A DNA stretch of 64,000 bases, taken from contig CAZCYO010000002.1 of the NCBI GenBank assembly GCA_964503265.1, positions 66,604 through 130,603 of the forward strand, given 5' to 3'. Below the pieces are notes generated by a model that ran no database searches, was not told the DNA's origin, and saw nothing but the letters and a program-made list of their open reading frames with translations. Shown here piece by piece: positions 1,453 to 18,645 of the stretch. Source of the DNA: an uncultured Gammaproteobacteria bacterium (GTDB taxonomy: Bacteria > Patescibacteriota > Microgenomatia > Levybacterales > UBA12049). The translations under genes were made by a program, and so were the position numbers. Numbering within the stretch: the first letter of the stretch is position 1; every line of letters starts with the position of its first letter.

Positions 1453-2100
1453 CTAAGGTTTAATAATATTCGAGGCTGAAATAACAATAAAGATACCTAC
1501 AGCATTTAAGATAAACGAAAGGATAATAAAGTGTGATGTTTTCATTTTTGCTATTCCCATCAAGCTTACTCCCAGTTCATCAGGAAGAGGCGATGCGATG
1601 ATAAGTGCGCCAAAGACAGGAAATGTCCAACTAAAATATTTTGTATGCATAACAGCTGTAACATGTTTTCCACCTAGATAATTATAGATTGGTGTAATTT
1701 CATCTAAAAGACTATCCTTTATAAACCGAAAGATTGTGAGATCTCCCACGACTGCTCCTATACCAGCAAGTATTCCTATCTCTACAGCCGAAAGCTTCTC
1801 TGCTAAAACTAACAGAATAATAGCTCCAGTAGCCACAGTAAACGTAGAGACAAAGAGGATCCCTGCAATGAACGCACCTAGGTAACCTAAATTGCCAAGC
1901 TGAAGAAGAAATTCGTGAAAAGGCTCATAACGAGAAAGAAGAAACGCAATAATAAGAGAAAGAAGAAAAAGAGAAAGGTTTTTATACCGAAATGATCTCC
2001 AACGTTTCACTTTTCCAGTATAACAGAAACAAAAACAGCCAACGTTTGGTCTAATTTTCTGTCGAGCACTGCTTGCTCTTAGTATCTTCGCTCGTTTCAC
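1453..2100 (-). CDS. Integral membrane protein (start probably internal to listed ORF)
   Basis: Several TM segments; listed N-terminus runs up to a terminator hairpin so true start is likely downstream. Confidence 0.4.
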   Translation of the reverse strand: MKRAKILRASSARQKIRPNVGCFCFCYTGKVKRWRSFRYKNLSLFLLSLIIAFLLSRYEPFHEFLLQLGNLGYLGAFIAGILFVSTFTVATGAIILLVLAEKLSAVEIGILAGIGAVVGDLTIFRFIKDSLLDEITPIYNYLGGKHVTAVMHTKYFSWTFPVFGALIIASPLPDELGVSLMGIAKMKTSHFIILSFILNAVGIFIVISASNIIKP

Positions 2101-9303: not shown

Positions 9304-9499
9304 TTGACAACGCCAAGCTAAAAATTTATAATTCTCTCAATGTTAAGAAATATCGTGCTCCTACCAGTCGTGATTAATAACCTCCTAATTGGGGGCTTTC
9401 ATACTGGGGAGAATTCGATATAAGGTAAATAAAATACAAAAGACCGATAAAGACCACCTCCCCCAAAGGGAGGTTTTTTTATGGCTAGAAAAGGAATAT
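9304..9499 (+). promoter_or_regulatory. Attenuator module A: promoter TTGACA-17-TATAAT, leaderless leader ORF, hairpin 1 (9381-9395), hairpin 2 CCUCCC-CCAAA-GGGAGG-U7 (9457-9480) carrying SD
   Basis: -35 9304-9309, -10 9327-9332, leader ATG 9340 (7 nt after -10); GGGAGG 3' arm is 8 nt before ATG 9481. Confidence 0.45.
9340..9423 (+). CDS. Leader peptide A, MLRNIVLLPVVINNLLIGGFHTGENSI (Ile/Val/Leu-rich)
   Basis: Leaderless ATG 7 nt after -10; branched-chain codons precede hairpin-1 5' arm. Confidence 0.35.
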   Translation: MLRNIVLLPVVINNLLIGGFHTGENSI

Positions 9500-10273: not shown

Positions 10274-10449
10274 TTGACAAATAAATTGAAGAATTCTATA
10301 CTCAGATTATGTTCATAACAAGCGCTAACAACTCAATTATTATTATTAACTCCCTCCGGGAGGTTCTTTTCGTGTAATAAGTAAACTTACACGAAAATGA
10401 ATAACCTCCCAAATTGGGAGGTTTTTTTATGGGAAAAATAATTACTTAA
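10274..10449 (+). promoter_or_regulatory. Attenuator module B: TTGACA-17-TATACT, leader ORF, hairpin 1 (10350-10363), hairpin 2 (10405-10428) with SD, mini-ORF MGKIIT
   Basis: -35 10274-10279, -10 10297-10302, leader ATG 10309; hairpin 2 CCUCCCA-AAU-UGGGAGG + U7 then ATG 10429. Confidence 0.5.
10309..10377 (+). CDS. Leader peptide B, MFITSANNSIIIINSLREVLFV (four consecutive AUU Ile codons at 10336-10347)
   Basis: Ile run ends 2 nt before hairpin-1 5' arm CUCCC. Confidence 0.4.
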   Translation: MFITSANNSIIIINSLREVLFV

Positions 10450-10643: not shown

Positions 10644-11033
10644 ATGACAAGAGAAGAAAATTTACAGTACAGAGCAGCACATGGGTATATCGGTGATAAT
10701 GAAATCGGTGTAAATGTTACGCCTACTACAAATAGATCACCATTCAGAGAAACAGGTAGATTACTCAGACTTGCAGAAGCAGCGGGCCGAGGACTAAATG
10801 GTTGGGAAGCGCAATACGAACAAACACGCGTATCAGATCCTATGCCAGAAATAAACGTACCAGAGGCAGACAATCATGTAGCTGAGGCACTTACAACTGT
10901 ATTTGGAGGAGAGCCTACTATGTATAAAGCTGATGCAGCTACCCTTGCAGTAAAAGACCAAGCATATCAAGCAACAGAACTTCCTCGAATTCGAGCAGCA
11001 CTAGCTGATCTTAGTAATGGAAATAGAGAATAA
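10644..11033 (+). CDS. Hypothetical protein
   Basis: 129 aa, strong RBS AAGAGGTGA; GC higher than flanks. Confidence 0.45.
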   Translation: MTREENLQYRAAHGYIGDNEIGVNVTPTTNRSPFRETGRLLRLAEAAGRGLNGWEAQYEQTRVSDPMPEINVPEADNHVAEALTTVFGGEPTMYKADAATLAVKDQAYQATELPRIRAALADLSNGNRE

Positions 11034-11124: not shown

Positions 11125-11853
11125 ATGGTAACTGTTGAGCAACGGACACATACTGAGAGAACATATGCACAGGCTCCTATGGCTGTTGCGGATGCAATGA
11201 TGGTCGGAACGACTGAATTAGTAACGAGTTATGCAGCTAGGCATCCAGTACAAACACCAGATGGAAGACCTCCTTCTCTCACTGACATAGCACAGACATT
11301 TCCTAAGAATACGTTTATGTACAACATGGAGGTTGTCATGAAAAATGCGACAGAAAAAATGTGCCAAACAGGTTCTGAGGTTGCAGTACGATTTCTTCTC
11401 GATAACCATTCCTCGCTTTTCGATAGGATTGGCCTCATACAGGCAGAAGGGAAACTTAATAATGGAAGTTGGAGACTGCATGAGCTATTTTTAGTTCGTG
11501 ATACGCGGAAGATATGGTACGCGGGAAGTCCGGCAAATTACGAACCAGAAGTAGCTGATAGGAAGTTAGCCTCTAGAAAGAACCAATCTGGTACTCTCGA
11601 ATTATTTCAACATCCCGATCTAGATATGCTTCTGAGTCACATTAAACAATCTGTAGGCGGACAATGGCCTGATCCATCATTTATTGAAGAAACCATTAAC
11701 ACAGGACCATTTCCAGGTAATCGGGAATGGTCATCGAATTATGCTATTCCTTTTAAACGATTAAAACGTGTTTACTCGTCTGATCAAGAAACCTATGACA
11801 AAGAAGAAAAAATCCTTCTTCAACCATATCGACGAGGAGGAAGAGTACTCTAA
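11125..11853 (+). CDS. Hypothetical protein
   Basis: 242 aa; no recognisable motif. Confidence 0.45.
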   Translation: MVTVEQRTHTERTYAQAPMAVADAMMVGTTELVTSYAARHPVQTPDGRPPSLTDIAQTFPKNTFMYNMEVVMKNATEKMCQTGSEVAVRFLLDNHSSLFDRIGLIQAEGKLNNGSWRLHELFLVRDTRKIWYAGSPANYEPEVADRKLASRKNQSGTLELFQHPDLDMLLSHIKQSVGGQWPDPSFIEETINTGPFPGNREWSSNYAIPFKRLKRVYSSDQETYDKEEKILLQPYRRGGRVL

Positions 11854-12693: not shown

Positions 12694-13026
12694 ATGAACC
12701 ATCAGACTCCACAATTAACAAAGTCAGATCTTCAGGAAACATTGAAGGACTACCCTACGAAACAGGATCTCCATAATGCGTTGAAAGATTACCCGACCAA
12801 ACAAGACCTTCATAACGAAATAGCAATTACTCATGAAGTTATGGAGATAAAATTAAAAGAACAAAGTAATAGTATTTTTGAGAAATTAGACTATCTTATT
12901 AAACAATTTGAGGAAATGAGAGAAGATAGAGAATTAAAAACATATCATGATGCAAATACGGCAAAAACACTTCAAAATCATGATAAAAGAATAAAAAAAC
13001 TTGAACAAACAATCCAGAAAGCATAA
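12694..13026 (+). CDS. Coiled-coil protein with tandem 14-aa repeat LKDYPTKQDLHNxL
   Basis: Two consecutive near-identical 42-nt units at 12745-12830 with synonymous changes. Confidence 0.45.
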   Translation: MNHQTPQLTKSDLQETLKDYPTKQDLHNALKDYPTKQDLHNEIAITHEVMEIKLKEQSNSIFEKLDYLIKQFEEMREDRELKTYHDANTAKTLQNHDKRIKKLEQTIQKA

Positions 13027-13028
13027 TA

Positions 13029-13244
13029 ATGCAAAAATACGAACAGGCAGTTGAAACAAATCGTAAGAAGATTTTCATCAATAACGTTATTGGTGGATTT
13101 GGATGGGCACTAGGAAGTACTATTGGATTAGCGATCTTTGCGACACTTCTAACATTTTTACTAAGTAAAATTGATTTGATTCCACTACTAGGAACCTATC
13201 TCGCTAAGCTTAATGCATTTATCGCTACACACCCGCACCAATAA
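13029..13244 (+). CDS. Small membrane protein (2 TM)
   Basis: 71 aa, hydrophobic, 2 nt after previous stop. Confidence 0.4.
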   Translation: MQKYEQAVETNRKKIFINNVIGGFGWALGSTIGLAIFATLLTFLLSKIDLIPLLGTYLAKLNAFIATHPHQ

Positions 13245-13248
13245 TTCT

Positions 13249-13381
13249 TGACGATTATAAATAACCATGATACAGTAAAAAAAATGAGTAACTTTTCTAA
13301 GATTATTACAACAACTACAACTCCCTAGCGGAGGTTGTTTTGTTATAGAGACAGACACCTCCCACATGGGAGGTTTTTTTT
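13249..13381 (+). promoter_or_regulatory. Attenuator module C (Thr leader) upstream of thrS operon: TTGACG-16-TACAGT, leader ORF, hairpin 1 (13321-13334), hairpin 2 (13358-13381)
   Basis: -35 13249-13254, -10 13271-13276, leader ATG 13284; hairpin 2 CCUCCCA-CAU-GGGAGG + U8 then ATG 13382. Confidence 0.55.
13284..13328 (+). CDS. Leader peptide C, MSNFSKIITTTTTP (Ile-Ile-Thr x5)
   Basis: Thr codons ACA ACA ACU ACA ACU at 13308-13322 abut hairpin-1 5' arm; stop UAG lies in hairpin-1 loop. Confidence 0.45.
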   Translation: MSNFSKIITTTTTP

Positions 13382-13654
13382 ATGATTGAATCACAAATAC
13401 AAACCCTCGAACAAGCAAGTAATGAGCCTAAAAATAGAGAAGGATTTGATCCAACCATACGAGGTCCTATTGCGACACTTTACTTACCACTAGAGAAAAA
13501 AGTAATAGCACATGCAATTCAATTTGAAAAATGGCAAAAAGAAACTATTGACTCAGGGAAGCCTCTCAATGGGATTACGAGAGAAAGCGAAGTAACAACT
13601 CAGCCAACCCGACAAGAAGAAATTATTCTCTTTGAAACTAGTGAAAGTAAATAA
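13382..13654 (+). CDS. Hypothetical 90-aa protein (possible divergent TGS-like N-terminal piece of ThrRS)
   Basis: SD in hairpin 2; C-terminal GKPLNGITRESEVTTQPTRQEEIILFET weakly resembles ThrRS TGS domain (..KLNGKEIDL.TPI.EDGTVEII.). Confidence 0.4.
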   Translation: MIESQIQTLEQASNEPKNREGFDPTIRGPIATLYLPLEKKVIAHAIQFEKWQKETIDSGKPLNGITRESEVTTQPTRQEEIILFETSESK

Positions 13655-13707
13655 ATCTTTAAAAGCATATCTGTATCTGCTATAGTCGAGATCAGAGGAG
13701 ATAAATT

Positions 13708-15462
13708 ATGGAAAACGACAAAAGACAACATATGAGACATTCTGCAGCACATTTACTCGCTGCTGCGATGATGAAACTGTATCCTAAAACCAAACTTACT
13801 ATTGGTCCTGCGATTGAAAACGGGTTTTATTATGATTTCGATTTGGAAAATCCTATTAACGAGGAAGACTTTTCTAACATTGAAGCAACTATGAGAGAAC
13901 TACTTCCTTCATGGAAAGCATTTACTCACCGTGAAGTATCAGAGCATGATGCGAAAGAATTTTATAAGCATAATGAGTATAAGCTAGAACTGATCGATGA
14001 AATTATCGCTAAAGGCGAGAAGATTACATTTTATACGTCTGGTGACTTTGAAGATCTTTGTCGTGGCGGACATAGTGAGAATCCATCTAAAGATATTGGC
14101 GCTGTAAAACTTCTTTCGATTGCAGGAGCGTATTGGCGAGGGAGTGAGAAAAATAAAATGCTTACTCGTATCTATGGAACGGCATTTGCCACTCAAGAAG
14201 AACTTGACGAGTATTTAGGGATGTTAGAGGAAGCAAAAAAGCGTGATCATAAGAAGTTAGGTCGAGAACTTGATCTCTTCTTCTTTACAGAAACCTCTCC
14301 TGGCATGGCATACTGGCTTCCAAAAGGACTTACCGTGTATAACACACTTTATGGGTATGTACGAGAAATGTATAAAAAGTATGGATATCAAGAAGTCGCT
14401 ACCCCACAACTAAATAAAAAAGAACTATACGAAATATCTGGTCATTGGCAGCACTACCGTGGGGACATGTTTATTTCTCCGATGAGCTATATAACCGAAG
14501 ACTCGTCTGAACTTCTAGAGGGAAGTGAGGTGTTTGGTATTAAGCCGATGAATTGCCCAAATGCCATGACAATTTTCGATTTGAGAACGAGATCATACAC
14601 AGAATTACCACTTCGACTTGCCGAGACATCCATTCTCCATCGATTTGAACTATCCGGGACACTTAATGGTCTTTTCAGAATTCGACAATTCCGACAAGAT
14701 GACGCTCACGTATTTATGACAGTTACTCAAATAAAACAAGAGTTTGAAGCTCTCATGGACATGATTGCTGATATGTATGCTCCATTTGATTTATCATACA
14801 AGCTTCGTTTTGGAACCCGGCCAGAAAAATTTATGGGAGAAAGTAGCGATTGGGATGTGGCAGAACGAGAACTCAAACAAGTATTAGTTGATTCAGGCCA
14901 AGAATTCTTTGAGGCAGCAGGTGAAGGAGCTTTTTATGGTCCTAAAATTGATATCTTAATGCGTGATTCAATCGGGAGAGAATGGCAGACAGGAACGATT
15001 CAACTAGACTTCCAACAGCCAAAGAATTTTACATTGAAATATACCGATAATGACGGTTCTGAGAAAACTCCGGTTGTCCTTCATCGTGCTATTTATGGTT
15101 CGTTCGAAAGATTTCTTGGAATTCTCGTTGAACACTATGGAGGAAAATTCCCATTATGGCTTGCTCCTATACAATTAACGCTTCTTCCAATTGCTGACAG
15201 ACATGTCGAGTTCGCTGAAAAAATAGCCTCAGAATATAAAGAATTAGGAATTCGAGTCGAAGTTGACAGTACGTCAGAGCGCTTACAAGCTAAGATTAGG
15301 AACGCTACTTTACAAAAAGTGCCGTTTATGGGTATAATAGGGGACGCGGAAATTGCTGAGAACGTAATTTCGGTTCGTGTAAGAAGCGGCGAAGATCTCG
15401 GTAAAATCGAAACTTCCAAGTTTCTGACCCAACTTAAAGAAAACATTGATAAAAAAGTATAA
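13708..15462 (+). CDS. thrS: Threonyl-tRNA synthetase, lacking N-terminal TGS domain
   Basis: Starts at editing-domain HxxxH motif (HMRHSAAHLLAAAMM); class II aaRS core and anticodon-binding domain alignable along full length. Confidence 0.9.
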   Translation: MENDKRQHMRHSAAHLLAAAMMKLYPKTKLTIGPAIENGFYYDFDLENPINEEDFSNIEATMRELLPSWKAFTHREVSEHDAKEFYKHNEYKLELIDEIIAKGEKITFYTSGDFEDLCRGGHSENPSKDIGAVKLLSIAGAYWRGSEKNKMLTRIYGTAFATQEELDEYLGMLEEAKKRDHKKLGRELDLFFFTETSPGMAYWLPKGLTVYNTLYGYVREMYKKYGYQEVATPQLNKKELYEISGHWQHYRGDMFISPMSYITEDSSELLEGSEVFGIKPMNCPNAMTIFDLRTRSYTELPLRLAETSILHRFELSGTLNGLFRIRQFRQDDAHVFMTVTQIKQEFEALMDMIADMYAPFDLSYKLRFGTRPEKFMGESSDWDVAERELKQVLVDSGQEFFEAAGEGAFYGPKIDILMRDSIGREWQTGTIQLDFQQPKNFTLKYTDNDGSEKTPVVLHRAIYGSFERFLGILVEHYGGKFPLWLAPIQLTLLPIADRHVEFAEKIASEYKELGIRVEVDSTSERLQAKIRNATLQKVPFMGIIGDAEIAENVISVRVRSGEDLGKIETSKFLTQLKENIDKKV

Positions 15463-16009
15463 AACAAAACAAGATCAAAAGTTCTATAGAATAAACGAGC
15501 GTATCTTTGCCCAGACGCTTCGAGTGATTGATCTAGAAGGAAAACAAATCGGGGTTATCTCAAAAAGCGAAGCCATAAGCCTCGCCCGAGAGCAAGGGTT
15601 AGACGTAGTTGAAATTGCACCACTCGCTACACCGCCTGTTGCTAAGATTATCGATTATAATAAATTCCTTTACCAAGAAGAAAAGAAAAAAAGAGAAGAA
15701 AAGAGAAACGCAAAGGTATCCGAGACGAAGGAAGTTCGACTAGGTCCGTTTATGTCTGACAATGATTTAGCAACCATGGTCAAGCGAACACGAGATTTTC
15801 TAGAAGACGGAGACAAGGTTCGACTGGTCGTTAAATATAAAGGAAGACAAATAACCCATCCAGAATTTGGACAGGTTATAATGCAAAAAGTAATACTAGC
15901 AGTTGACGATATATCGAAAGTAGATCGTGAGCCTAAATTTGAAGGTAAACAACTGATTACATTACTCTCACCTGAAAGGAAGAAAAAGAATGCCGAAGAA
16001 AAAAATTAA
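15446..16009 (+). CDS. infC: Translation initiation factor IF-3 (non-ATG start: TTG 15446 or AUA 15449)
   Basis: YRINERI...LDVVEIAPLATPPVAKIIDYNKFLY typical IF3; overlaps thrS end. Confidence 0.85.
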   Translation: MIKKYKTKQDQKFYRINERIFAQTLRVIDLEGKQIGVISKSEAISLAREQGLDVVEIAPLATPPVAKIIDYNKFLYQEEKKKREEKRNAKVSETKEVRLGPFMSDNDLATMVKRTRDFLEDGDKVRLVVKYKGRQITHPEFGQVIMQKVILAVDDISKVDREPKFEGKQLITLLSPERKKKNAEEKN

Positions 16010-16187
16010 AAAATCAGTATCTAGACGCTTTAAAGTTACAAAAACTGGAAAAGTGATGTTTAGCCATCAATATGCTGGTCATCATAAAATCCATAAATCA
16101 AAAAAACGTCTTCGCAGACTGAAAGAACCAGCAGAAATGACTGGAAGATTCGCAAGAAACATTAAAAAATTATTAGGAGCACTATAA
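15990..16187 (+). CDS. rpmI: 50S ribosomal protein L35
   Basis: MPKKKIKKSVSRRFKVTKTGKV... 65 aa basic. Confidence 0.85.
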   Translation: MPKKKIKKSVSRRFKVTKTGKVMFSHQYAGHHKIHKSKKRLRRLKEPAEMTGRFARNIKKLLGAL

Positions 16188-16188
16188 T

Positions 16189-16539
16189 ATGGCAAGAGTA
16201 AAACGAGGTATTGTTTCAAGACGCAAACACAATAAACTACTTGGATTAACCAAGGGTTTTCGTGGTACAAAAAGCAGTCTTATTAAAACAGCACATGAAG
16301 CTGCACTTCACGCTGGAGCATATGCATTCCATGGACGAAAATTACGAAAACGAGATATTCGATCTCTATGGATTATTAGAATTGGTGAAGCAGTTAAAAA
16401 AGAAAGTCTTTCATACAGTAAATTTATTGATATGCTTAAAAAAGCAAATGTTGAACTTGATAGAAAGATTCTAAGTGATCTTATCGTAAACCATCCTGAA
16501 ACATTTAAAAAAGTTCTTGACAGTGTTAAAACTGCTTGA
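16189..16539 (+). CDS. rplT: 50S ribosomal protein L20
   Basis: MARVKRGIVSRRKHNKLL... 116 aa. Confidence 0.9.
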   Translation: MARVKRGIVSRRKHNKLLGLTKGFRGTKSSLIKTAHEAALHAGAYAFHGRKLRKRDIRSLWIIRIGEAVKKESLSYSKFIDMLKKANVELDRKILSDLIVNHPETFKKVLDSVKTA

Positions 16540-16708
16540 TAAGCTAATACCCATGATCACAACACGACAATCATATTTCTATTTTTACTTTACTTCCTTA
16601 ACCGGGAGGTCTTTTGCTGTCTAAGCAAGAAAAGTAAAACATAGACACAAAAGAGTACACCTCCCACACGGGAGGTTTTTTTATGGGAAAAATAAGAAAG
16701 GAATCACT
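16517..16708 (+). promoter_or_regulatory. Attenuator module D (Phe/Tyr leader, pheM-like): TTGACA-17-TAAGCT, leader ORF, hairpin 1 (16593-16609), hairpin 2 (16661-16682), mini-ORF MGKIRKESLCQE overlapping next start
   Basis: -35 16517-16522 overlaps rplT stop; leader ATG 16553; hairpin 2 CCUCCCA-CAC-GGGAGG + U7 then ATG 16683. Confidence 0.55.
16553..16624 (+). CDS. Leader peptide D, MITTRQSYFYFYFTSLTGRSFAV (Phe/Tyr run; compare E. coli PheM [15 protein letters not shown])
   Basis: Six consecutive Tyr/Phe codons 16574-16591 end 1 nt before hairpin-1 5' arm CUUCC. Confidence 0.45.
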   Translation: MITTRQSYFYFYFTSLTGRSFAV

Positions 16709-17662
16709 ATGCCAGGAATAGAAATGCGACATCATTCAGTTGAAATTATTGCAGGACCATGCTCAATGGATGAGAAAAACAGAGGAGAAATAGATACCAT
16801 TGCAGGGATTAGTTTACCTGACGGCCGTCCTGCCATTTATGGAACACGTGTGGTCGGATATAAATCACGAACAGAGTTAGATCCTTCAGGGAAAGGAATG
16901 GGGGTCGATTATCATGCAGTCGAACATGCGTTAGATACGAATGAACTAGGAGATGATCCACAAAGTGTAATGTGGGCACGGGAAATCGTAAAAGATACTG
17001 GCCTTCAAATTGCAACTGAAATTATGGTTCCTCATATTCAATTAGGATATTTTCAACGAGACCCGCTATTTCAAGGCAAACTATTACCATGGAATCCATC
17101 AGTTGATCAATTAGGACCTCATATGAGGCAAATGGGGAAATTTGCAATTAAAAATGAGTGGAGACTAGGTATAAAAAATGGAAAAGATTTAGGAGTAACC
17201 CCAAGTGTTGCAAATGATAAGAATGGCCGAGCACCTACCCCTCTTGAAAAAACATGGGGAGGACTTGCCACATGGGCACATGGATTAGATGAAAGTAATT
17301 TGGTTTTCATACAACGTGGAGTAAATATTCCTGAGAGAGGAGATCATAGAAACCTTCCAATACATGAAGCGACACGGCGAATTAAAGAAAGGTTTCCACA
17401 TGCTATTACATTATTTGATCCAAGTCATAGCTTTGGACCGAAGATGCGAGATCAAATTGTAGAAGGAAGTATAGATGCATTACGAATGACAGCAGGGAGT
17501 AGACCACTATATGATGGACTACTTATTGAAGCAGGGAGCTCAGATACTGATACAGACCAACATATTACCATTCAAGAACTTACCGAACTTGTTGATACCG
17601 TTCAACGGATTAGAGATGTTCGCACACGAGAACCACACAACTTCTATCAAAGAAGGGCGTAG
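16709..17662 (+). CDS. 3-deoxy-7-phosphoheptulonate (DAHP) synthase, class I-alpha (AroG-like)
   Basis: IIAGPCSMDE (GPCS), KSRT (KPRT analogue), KTWGGLATWAHG...FIQRGVN, LFDPSHS, GLLIEAG line up with E. coli AroG blocks. Confidence 0.6.
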   Translation: MPGIEMRHHSVEIIAGPCSMDEKNRGEIDTIAGISLPDGRPAIYGTRVVGYKSRTELDPSGKGMGVDYHAVEHALDTNELGDDPQSVMWAREIVKDTGLQIATEIMVPHIQLGYFQRDPLFQGKLLPWNPSVDQLGPHMRQMGKFAIKNEWRLGIKNGKDLGVTPSVANDKNGRAPTPLEKTWGGLATWAHGLDESNLVFIQRGVNIPERGDHRNLPIHEATRRIKERFPHAITLFDPSHSFGPKMRDQIVEGSIDALRMTAGSRPLYDGLLIEAGSSDTDTDQHITIQELTELVDTVQRIRDVRTREPHNFYQRRA

Positions 17663-17685: not shown

Positions 17686-18645
17686 GTGTCGGTCACACAG
17701 TTGCAGTATAATGAGCTAGTTATGAAAAATGAAATGATTTTTATCGATGGCAAATTTGTTTTAGAAACTGATGCGAGAATATCGCTTAAAACACATGCAC
17801 TCCAGTATGGAACTGGCTGCTTTGAAGGAATTAGAGCGTACTATTCAGAAGAAGACGATGCGCTCTATGCATTTAGAGTAGAAGATCATTTTAGGAGATT
17901 TCTTAAATCATGTCATATACTGTTTATGAAACTTCCATATTCTGTTGAGGAATTAACGACATTTACTATCGAACTCTTAAAAAAGAACTATGACAAAACA
18001 GATATTTATATTAGGCCATTCGCTTTTAAATCTGAACCGACAGTCAGTAGTTTTAATCTTCAAACTCTTAAAACAAGTGTAGCGATCTATACAATCGCGA
18101 TGGGAAGATATCTCGATACAAAAGGTCTGAAAGCAAATATCTCTACCTGGAAAAGAGTCAATGACAATGCAATTCCACCTCGTGCAAAGATTACTGGCTC
18201 ATATATAAATACAGCACTTGCTAAAACAGAATCTCAGCTGAACGGATATGACGAAGCATTATTTTTAGATGAATCTGGCCATGTCGTCGAAGGAAGTGCA
18301 GAGAATATTTTCATTATTAAAGGAAATACTTTGATTACTCCATCTATCTCTGAAGATATTCTTCAGGGAATCACGAGGGAAACTATTATGATGTTAGCTC
18401 GTGATCATACTAATCTCACACTTGTCGAAAGAAGTATCGGGCGAACAGAACTATATCAAGCTGATGAAGTATTTTTAGTAGGAACGGGAGCCGAAGTAGC
18501 ACCAGTTATCGAAATTGATAAACGTGAAATTGGTACAGGTAAAACAGGACCACATACAGAAAAGATAAAAGATCTTTATTTTAAACTCGTTCATGGACAG
18601 TTACCAGAATATAAACAGTTATTTACCAAAATAACGTCTGACTAA
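17686..18645 (+). CDS. ilvE: Class IV PLP aminotransferase (branched-chain/aromatic amino-acid aminotransferase)
   Basis: EVFLVGTGAEVAPV and GSAENIFIIKGN motifs; probable start ATG 17722 (TTGTGT-17-TATAAT 9 nt upstream). Confidence 0.7.
   Translation: MSVTQLQYNELVMKNEMIFIDGKFVLETDARISLKTHALQYGTGCFEGIRAYYSEEDDALYAFRVEDHFRRFLKSCHILFMKLPYSVEELTTFTIELLKKNYDKTDIYIRPFAFKSEPTVSSFNLQTLKTSVAIYTIAMGRYLDTKGLKANISTWKRVNDNAIPPRAKITGSYINTALAKTESQLNGYDEALFLDESGHVVEGSAENIFIIKGNTLITPSISEDILQGITRETIMMLARDHTNLTLVERSIGRTELYQADEVFLVGTGAEVAPVIEIDKREIGTGKTGPHTEKIKDLYFKLVHGQLPEYKQLFTKITSD

Follow-up and report, generated by a model that had tools for sequence, protein, structure and literature searches.

What controls expression of thrS, the gene for threonyl-tRNA synthetase (ThrRS), in the bacterium that supplied the DNA shown above? 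This gene is a textbook case for protein autoregulation and for the T-box, and classical attenuation is textbook material from Proteobacteria and, later, from Actinobacteria and a few Firmicutes; to our knowledge, almost nothing has been established about gene regulation in the Candidate Phyla Radiation (CPR). We refer to the stretch analysed here, 64,000 nucleotides (nt) of contig CAZCYO010000002.1, as the window. By its best ThrRS matches the source lineage is close to Candidatus Levyibacteriota, the closest ThrRS sequences in genome and metagenome scans having 73-74% identity and none being above 74%. On the + strand at 13248-13381, upstream of thrS-infC-rpmI-rplT, the window contains a short open reading frame (ORF) with a run of Thr codons, followed by a hairpin and a U-tract, which together we call the Thr element. 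From our analysis, the likely role of this element is ribosome-mediated leader-peptide transcription attenuation in response to charged tRNA-Thr, and the sequence-level predictions of a classical leader-peptide attenuator all hold for it.

The components of the Thr element are listed in Table 1. The leader mRNA is probably leaderless, with a 5' untranslated region (UTR) of 0-1 nt, because promoter P1 ends 7 nt before the leader ATG and no Shine-Dalgarno (SD) sequence is present upstream of that ATG. The Thr run in MSNFSKIITTTTTP is preceded by two Ile codons, and a run of the type (ACN)5 occurs once in the window on either strand, versus 0.03 occurrences expected from shuffles. The core of hairpin 1:2 is formed by ACAACTCC (13317-13325) and GGAGGTTGT (13330-13338), with the TAG in its apical loop, and region 2 (GGAGGT) has the Thr codons or the 5' arm of the terminator as alternative partners. 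Antiterminator 2:3 is contained in the minimum free energy structure of the whole leader, while terminator 3:4 was recovered independently by a terminator scan, and the GGAGG of its 3' arm is also the SD sequence of the ATG 8 nt further on. The 126-nt leader region is more stable than shuffles (z = -2.72) in a window that is AT-rich (38% GC). An earlier note on this DNA had described the five Thr codons, a UAG inside the loop of the first hairpin, and a GGAGG that switches between this hairpin and the terminator arm; codons and stop were borne out to the base, and folding gave three mutually exclusive helices, as such a switch requires.

As read from the sequence, RNA polymerase would initiate at P1, at the leader AUG or 1 nt before it, and a 70S ribosome would start on the leaderless AUG and translate MSNFSKII before meeting the five Thr codons. 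The RNA could then form helix 1:2 (Thr codons with GGAGGUUGU), helix 2:3 (GGAGGU with ACCUCC) or helix 3:4 (the terminator with U8), each excluding the others. When Thr-tRNA-Thr is ample, the ribosome would reach the UAG in the 1:2 loop and cover region 2, so that 3:4 forms and transcription ends at about 13381 with a leader RNA of ~98 nt. Under a shortage of charged tRNA-Thr, the ribosome would stall on the first Thr codons, covering region 1 and freeing region 2 for pairing in 2:3; pairing of CUCCC (13321-25) with GGGAG (13368-72) would aid this helix, and the terminator would be blocked. The polymerase would then continue through ORF90, the small ORF behind the terminator, into thrS-infC-rpmI-rplT, and read-through would also expose the GGAGG/AUG 13382 ribosome-binding site. 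In transcripts arriving from the upstream DUF5665 gene, the leader AUG would be internal and without an SD sequence, and such transcripts would go untranslated and terminate at the element.

We simulated the positions of the ribosome by masking the nucleotides of its footprint, the last of them 10 nt beyond the first base of the A-site codon, and computing the ensemble probability of the terminator stem, P(terminator), by equilibrium folding. For the window element, P(terminator) was 0.00-0.01 with the A site at Thr1-2 and 0.99 at the stop codon, a result that was stable for footprints of +8 to +12. Similar behaviour was seen when elements from related loci were included: at the stop codon, P(terminator) was at least 0.92 in 18/18 elements, and with the A site on one or more Thr codons it fell to 0.04 or less in 17/18 (L089 came down only to 0.17, and L004 only to 0.39).

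Table 1. Positions of the Thr element, its neighbours and comparable elements (window numbering unless a related locus, L, is named)
Feature	Position	Strand	Remarks
Promoter P1	13248-13276	+	-35 TTGACG (13248-13253), 17-nt spacer, extended -10 TG (13268-69)-a-TACAGT (13271-13276); promoter scan
Leader ORF MSNFSKIITTTTTP	13284-13328	+	14 codons plus TAG; ATG 13284-13286, TAG 13326-13328; direct reading
Regulatory codons	13308-13322	+	five consecutive Thr (ACA ACA ACT ACA ACT); double as region 1, the 5' strand of hairpin 1:2
Hairpin 1:2 (pause / anti-antiterminator)	13310-13344	+	Thr-Pro codons pair with GGAGGTTGT..TTGTT; -10.8 kcal/mol
Antiterminator 2:3	13330-13363	+	GGAGGT (13330-13335) complementary to ACCTCC (13357-13362), inner helix; -13.4 kcal/mol
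Intrinsic terminator 3:4	13357-13381	+	ACCTCCC-ACAT-GGGAGGT plus U8; arms 13357-13363 / 13368-13374, 8 T at 13374-13381; -10.3 kcal/mol
ORF90	13382-13654	+	90 codons between attenuator and thrS; ATG 13382, SD sequence in terminator arm
Promoter-like site P2	13658-13686	+	TTTAAA-17-TG-c-TATAGT, directly 5' of thrS; TGcTATAGT at 13678-13686; promoter scan
thrS	13708-15462	+	TIGR00418, 1.9e-197; Pfam
infC	15446-16009	+	named from ORF translation
rpmI	15990-16187	+	named from ORF translation
rplT	16189-16539	+	named from ORF translation
Ile/Val/Leu leader MLRNIVLLPVVINNLLIGGFHTGENSI, branched-chain type	9304-9480		ATG 9340, behind TTGACA-N17/18-TATAAT
Ile/Val/Leu terminator	9457-9479		CCTCCCCC-AAA-GGGAGG plus U7
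Ile attenuator	10276-10430		TTGACA-17-TATACT 6 nt before ATG 10309; leader MFITSANNSIIIINSLREVLFV
Ile terminator	10405-10427		CCTCCC-AAATT-GGGAGG plus U7
Phe/Tyr attenuator	16507-16682		directly after rplT; promoter TTGACA-17-TAAGCT inside rplT 3' end
Phe/Tyr leader MITTRQSYFYFYFTSLTGRSFAV	16553-16624		hairpin ACTTCC..GGGAGGT (16592-16610)
Phe/Tyr terminator	16660-16682		CCTCCC-ACAC-GGGAGG plus U7
Related loci with Thr-run element			L004/L085, L008, L013, L015, L018, L019, L021, L025, L034, L047, L054, L071, L083, L088, L089
L083 leader			MNKEIVATTTTTAS
L013 leader			MQNKQLVITTTTTTL
L015 and L034 leaders			M..QIALTTTTTLS
L018 leader			MNKQFALTTTTAL
L025 leader			MIANHNITTTTIPS
L047 and L054 leaders			..ITTTTT(D/E)R
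L071 leader			seven Thr
L088 and L089 leaders			..ITTTTATP
L021 leader			MTQLTHNITTQNRPL
L004 leader			MIYSDIITTTIIL
MKRYY-type leader sites	L002:~2190-2292; L003:~2200-2300; L030:~1950-2050; L084:984-1084; L107:371-468		
Extra attenuator-like modules	L015:~420-520, ~985-1085; L034:243-330, ~650-750; L035:~866-985; L025:~1500-1600		

GTDB genomes and metagenomes contributed 80 thrS loci each to the comparison; of these 160, 132 were distinct and had enough upstream sequence. We scanned 0.98 Mb on both strands for short ORFs in which 6 residues include 4 or more Thr and which have a terminator behind them; the 16 matches were all upstream of thrS and on its strand, and none was found elsewhere. 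A look at related thrS upstream regions for a Thr-run leader, which the earlier note had suggested as a check, was thus positive: the element stands before thrS in 15/132 distinct related loci, at ThrRS identities of 47-73%, and its region 2 co-varies with the terminator stem. The related leaders have runs of 4-7 Thr codons (three in L004), and the run is all that they have in common, the rest of the peptide differing in sequence and length. As judged by eye, a TTGACA-16/18-TAnAnT box, in most cases with TG, lies 6-9 nt before the leader ATG in 14/15 related elements. In 15/15 the stop codon is in or beside the 1:2 apical loop. The attenuator abuts thrS with no small ORF between them in nine loci (L004, L018, L021, L047, L054, L071, L083, L088 and L089). 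In 2 others, L008 (1407-1683) and L019 (1957-2166), Thr-leader attenuators occur as tandem pairs, as for example MANQFISTTTTIS followed by MKKYIFIIETTTTTQFFWEC, each with its stop codon; the L019 pair is followed by a serB-like gene and then thrS, and the L008 pair by an ORF with a P-loop (GSGKS) motif, a 144-amino acid (aa) ORF and then thrS.

The three-helix layout was found in most of the 15 tabulated elements and was unclear for L008b, L019b and L071, and in most elements helix 2:3 is at least as stable as the terminator. Terminator stems are of four types (CCTCC(C), CCCCGC, CCCCTC and CCCTCC), each with a matching region 2 just past the stop codon. Since alignment of the elements with MAFFT (A1 and A2) left the helices out of register and the DNA unalignable, with only 3 pairs found by RNAalifold, we relied on folding of each element, comparison of cognate with swapped duplex energies, and ribosome masking, and not on a covariance model. 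Cognate 2:3 duplexes had a mean energy of -13.4 kcal/mol versus -11.0 kcal/mol for swapped ones, and cognate 1:2 duplexes -14.8 versus -13.0 kcal/mol; permutations reached energies as good in 0/5000 and 21/5000 cases, respectively, counts that are to be read as indications and not as probabilities, the loci being phylogenetically related.

With regard to the genes under control, the operon thrS-infC-rpmI-rplT occupies 13708-16539 (+), and this four-gene run recurs in most related loci. The terminator scan found the + strand free of other terminator-like sites from 13374 to 16592, a position past the end of rplT. The earlier note had placed an ORF of 90 aa, thrS and infC-rpmI-rplT downstream of the element, and this order held, thrS being identified by TIGR00418 and Pfam and the others by their ORF translations; its proposal of a Thr attenuator gains support from the element's own promoter, the stop codon in the loop, the lack of another + strand terminator before the end of rplT, and the simulated antitermination on Thr codons. 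It mentioned neither promoter P1 nor the promoter-like site P2. The thrS SD sequence AGAGGAG (13694-13700) follows P2, and most relatives, whether or not they have an attenuator, show a P2-like box (TGnTATAGT/TATAAT) 6-14 nt upstream of their thrS ATG. Because thrS has this promoter-like site of its own, and the site is conserved in relatives, the attenuator would probably provide a starvation-inducible boost over basal expression from P2 and not the sole control.

ORF90 is an orphan: no Pfam or NCBIfam match was found for it, its only match among 5.8 billion proteins was itself, and tblastn found no homologue in 80 related loci. Relatives have at this position a serB-like phosphatase gene, unrelated ORFs with lengths of 59-91 aa, or nothing. 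We considered ORF90 as a relative of the serB-like gene or of the small ORFs at that position elsewhere and rejected this, no relation being seen. Possibly, it is a real but very fast-evolving gene.

Several observations on thrS itself may be placed here. The window ThrRS (13708-15462), 584 aa long, has no N-terminal TGS domain, its Pfam matches being limited to tRNA_SAD, the class II core and the anticodon-binding domain; all related thrS starts that we examined open just before a conserved RHS(A/T)AH motif. In L004, L007, L009, L013, L020, L023, L026, L031-L035 and L081-L083, the distance from a TGnTATAAT-like box to the thrS ATG is 6-8 nt and an SD sequence is absent, which suggests that thrS, and probably many other genes, would be expressed as leaderless mRNAs in this lineage. 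The window thrS differs from those relatives in that its P2 box is 21 nt upstream and an SD sequence is present.

A number of our observations weigh against the interpretation of the Thr element as an attenuator of thrS. The terminator and thrS are 326 nt apart, ORF90 included, and with P2 present, part of thrS transcription may bypass the attenuator. In L004 and L083, thrS is seemingly leaderless, with a -10 box right after the terminator and no SD sequence, and its translation from read-through transcripts might be poor in these 2 loci. About 89% of related thrS loci lack the element, several of the closest (L005, L006) among them, and L002 and L003 have another leader (MKRYY..KTxTS), followed by a serB-like gene and thrS. 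In the masking simulation of the window element, P(terminator) was already 0.67-0.99 with the A site on Thr3-5, and the untranslated leader at equilibrium favours the antiterminator (P(terminator) 0.06), so that termination would need either a ribosome over region 2 or co-transcriptional formation of 1:2. Finally, the kinship of the loci bears on the permutation comparisons, and the case as a whole is built from sequence analysis and equilibrium folding, a treatment that is thermodynamic and not kinetic.

These points have to be set against what other explanations can accommodate. According to the main rival, to which we assign a low though real probability, the regulated cargo is the small ORF behind the attenuator (ORF90 here), thrS runs essentially from P2, and the link with thrS reflects a conserved neighbourhood. 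The P2-like boxes of most relatives would agree with this, as would the SD sequence in the terminator arm, the ATG or GTG that about two thirds of the elements have after their U-tract, and the orphan ORFs that also follow other attenuators in the window and in L015/L034. However, the small ORFs are not homologous to one another and are absent in the nine loci where the attenuator abuts thrS; thrS is the only conserved downstream gene, the identity of the Thr codons fits it in 16/16 matches, and no terminator separates ORF90 from thrS. The other rivals, taken together, account for only a small residue of probability. One of them, in which the hairpin and U-tract are the terminator of the upstream DUF5665 gene and of noise from P1, and the Thr-run ORF is a chance frame, draws on the position of the DUF5665 stop codon (13244), 113 nt before the terminator, and on the fact that CCTCCC/GGGAGG is the generic terminator stem of this genome, with four copies in the window. 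Yet a good promoter lies between the end of the DUF5665 gene and the leader ORF, (ACN)5 has an expectation of only 0.03 per window, and the Thr run, promoter spacing, stop-in-loop arrangement and 2:3 complementarity recur in 15 other loci that are otherwise unalignable. Also, Thr-run leaders were found nowhere else in the 0.98-Mb scan, and the divergence of the sequences argues against one recent mobile copy. This explanation is already strongly disfavoured, and we consider it very improbable.

Just as improbable, in our estimate, is that the leader ORF is a stand-alone gene for a functional Thr-rich micropeptide and not a sensor. Such a gene would have its own promoter and terminator, as is the case here, and a conserved motif, (I/L)TTTTT; but the peptides are unlike outside the Thr run in both sequence and length (MSNFSKIITTTTTP, MNKEIVATTTTTAS, MALFERAYTITTTTTDR and others), the conserved feature is the RNA complementarity among Thr codons, region 2 and terminator, and sister modules have Ile or Phe/Tyr runs in place of Thr. 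The GGAGG in the 3' arm of the terminator, 8 nt before ATG 13382, would permit control that is translational only, with 3:4 hiding the SD sequence of ORF90 until the leader opens it and with no regulated termination. The U8 directly after the stem is a hallmark of an intrinsic terminator, however, and L083, L088 and L071, in which the element abuts thrS and no start codon follows the U-tract, keep the terminator nonetheless; we therefore give translational control of this exclusive kind hardly any probability, and note that it and termination are not mutually exclusive.

Transcription attenuation through the Thr codons can next be compared with known systems. In Rfam searches of the region (E<=10) and of the window together with 9 relatives (gathering score), the only matches were tRNAs and a sub-threshold Phe_leader. 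The Thr_leader model (RF00506) matched neither 13000-13900 at E<=10 nor the window at gathering score, and the Phe_leader model (RF01859) scored 22.8 bits (E = 0.33) at 13280-13383, below its 55-bit gathering score; the latter resemblance is one of generic architecture only. We rejected a T-box leader, there being no model match in the window or in 9 related loci, and also an operator of the E. coli thrS type, for which, by folding only, 13640-13735 was no better than shuffles (z = +0.96).

The E. coli pheM leader is a Phe-codon leader peptide that controls phenylalanyl-tRNA synthetase, and pheM-pheST is the closest analogue of the Thr element: both have a synthetase operon, a leader ORF with cognate codons, alternative hairpins and an intrinsic terminator. 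The window element differs from it in its specificity (Thr, thrS), in being apparently leaderless, in having no sequence similarity to it, and in belonging to Patescibacteria and not to Gammaproteobacteria. With E. coli thrL/thrABC it shares the sensing of Thr-tRNA charging by way of Thr (and Ile) codons and a terminator/antiterminator switch, but thrL controls threonine biosynthesis whereas the window element would control the synthetase, and we regard the two as analogues, the window element not being a member of RF00506. The thrS T-box of Firmicutes and the thrS operator of E. coli have the same goal, that is, more thrS when tRNA-Thr charging or ThrRS is limiting, yet their sensors are different: uncharged tRNA binds the T-box, and ThrRS protein binds anticodon-like hairpins of the operator.

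The earlier note knew of no Thr-leader attenuator for thrS, and its claim of novelty was overstated. E. coli pheST, named as the precedent in PMC1262725, is a known case of attenuation of an aminoacyl-tRNA synthetase (aaRS) through its cognate codons, and predictions of leader-peptide attenuators exist for Streptomyces trpS and leuS (PMC1262725) and for the hisS paralogues of bacilli (PMC2965389). An RNA-seq study of S. lividans recorded, before thrS, a weak 'thrL' along with leaderless alaL, leuL2 and trpL2; in this thrL, MKRVRPFLETTPGFVPAR, the Thr codons number only two, and the authors saw no clear U-rich terminator (PMC8079986). The window element resembles the actinobacterial leader peptides in probably having no 5' UTR and in preceding an aaRS gene, thrS among them; it differs from S. 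lividans thrL in that it has five Thr codons in a row, its terminator is canonical and related loci lend it support. In the literature that we searched there was no leader-peptide attenuation in CPR and no Thr-run leader for thrS; the aaRS survey by Lopatovskaya et al. 2010 (Mol Biol 44:128) could hold a precedent. What we see thus appears to be a known mechanism that is new in its gene and its phylum and that probably works from a leaderless mRNA.

If this is correct, a Thr attenuator before thrS would be a third solution beside protein autoregulation and the T-box, and ribosome-coupled attenuation would extend to CPR, implying transcription-translation coupling and the use of leaderless initiation in these organisms. 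It would suggest that these cells, which are reduced and probably depend on a host, keep track of how far individual tRNAs are charged. The combination of promoter, codon run and CCUCC terminator may also serve as a recognisable signature for annotating regulatory units, transcription starts and transcription ends in CPR. The interest of the element lies less in its mechanism than in the indication that this lineage employs many modules of the kind.

The window contains four attenuator modules within 7.4 kb, with Ile/Val/Leu, Ile, Thr and Phe/Tyr codon runs (Table 1). A terminator cassette is repeated in all four (9435-9493, 10383-10441, 13355-13380 and 16637-16695), with 73-96% identity over 26 nt; the Thr terminator and that at 16657-16682 are 96% identical over 26 nt, and the Ile and Phe/Tyr cassettes are 76% identical over 59 nt, including the identical tail GGGAGGTTTTTTTATGGGAAAAATAA. 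This shared cassette suggests that the modules may have arisen by duplication, with the codon run exchanged afterwards. As a tentative extension, we raise the possibility that the Thr element is one of a lineage-wide network of leaderless leader-peptide attenuators in Levyibacteriota-like CPR bacteria, in which a duplicated promoter/terminator cassette carries the SD sequence and start codon of the next ORF in its terminator, has had its specificity swapped (Thr, Ile, Ile/Val/Leu, Phe/Tyr, perhaps Met), is sometimes found in tandem, and controls aaRS operons and arrays of fast-evolving orphan ORFs. Such a network would amount to a starvation regulon based on tRNA charging in organisms thought to be minimal in regulation and poor in amino-acid biosynthesis.

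The Phe/Tyr module, which stands after rplT and upstream of pheS, has the position of pheM in E. coli. It is followed by a DAHP-synthase-like ORF (16709-17662; weak NCBIfam match, 1.8e-6), ilvE (17686-18645) and pheS (18735-), and its simulated P(terminator) dips only to ~0.4-0.6 on the YFYFYF codons. Phe-rich leaders in related loci are mainly found after rplT, with pheS downstream in two of those loci; (F/Y)-rich leaders in this position were seen in L029, L035, L055/L113 and L034. For the Ile/Val/Leu module, simulated P(terminator) falls to 0.01 on the LLPVV codons. Behind this module lies an unannotated ORF (to 10267), whose EGHHR motif may be ParB-like. The Ile module is followed by orphan ORFs at 10644-11033 (129 aa) and 11125-11853 (242 aa), for which there was no Pfam match and no homologue in the 160 loci, and no ileS is nearby.

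The U-tract of such modules is very often followed directly by ATG or GTG, as at 13369-13384, 16671-16685, 10416-10429 and 9468-9483 in the window and also in L013, L015, L019, L025, L034, L047 and L054. Together, the GGAGG arm and this start codon make up a canonical ribosome-binding site, which the terminator conceals and read-through exposes. In the Thr element the start codon opens ORF90; elsewhere it opens mini-ORFs of 6-12 codons (MGKIIT, MGKIRKESLCQE and MEKRPFE, each with its stop codon). A start codon behind the terminator may re-establish transcription-translation coupling.

Further attenuator-like modules are located upstream of the HD-domain/DUF5665/thrS block in L015, L034, L035 and L025. 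Their leaders contain Ile runs (MNKQIIGIIIITR), Phe runs (MTFS(R/K)RFS(I/F)FFFNSLDGGEC) or Met runs (MKFVYSSMMMTNPS), and most of these modules are followed by small orphan ORFs with strong SD sequences. In addition, a distinct, conserved leader of the form MKRYY(I/V)MSxKTxTS, ending at its stop codon, and a CCTCC terminator precede a serB-like HAD phosphatase gene, and then thrS, at the MKRYY-type sites of Table 1; with Tyr-Tyr, Met, Ser and 2-3 Thr among its residues, the specificity of this leader is ambiguous.

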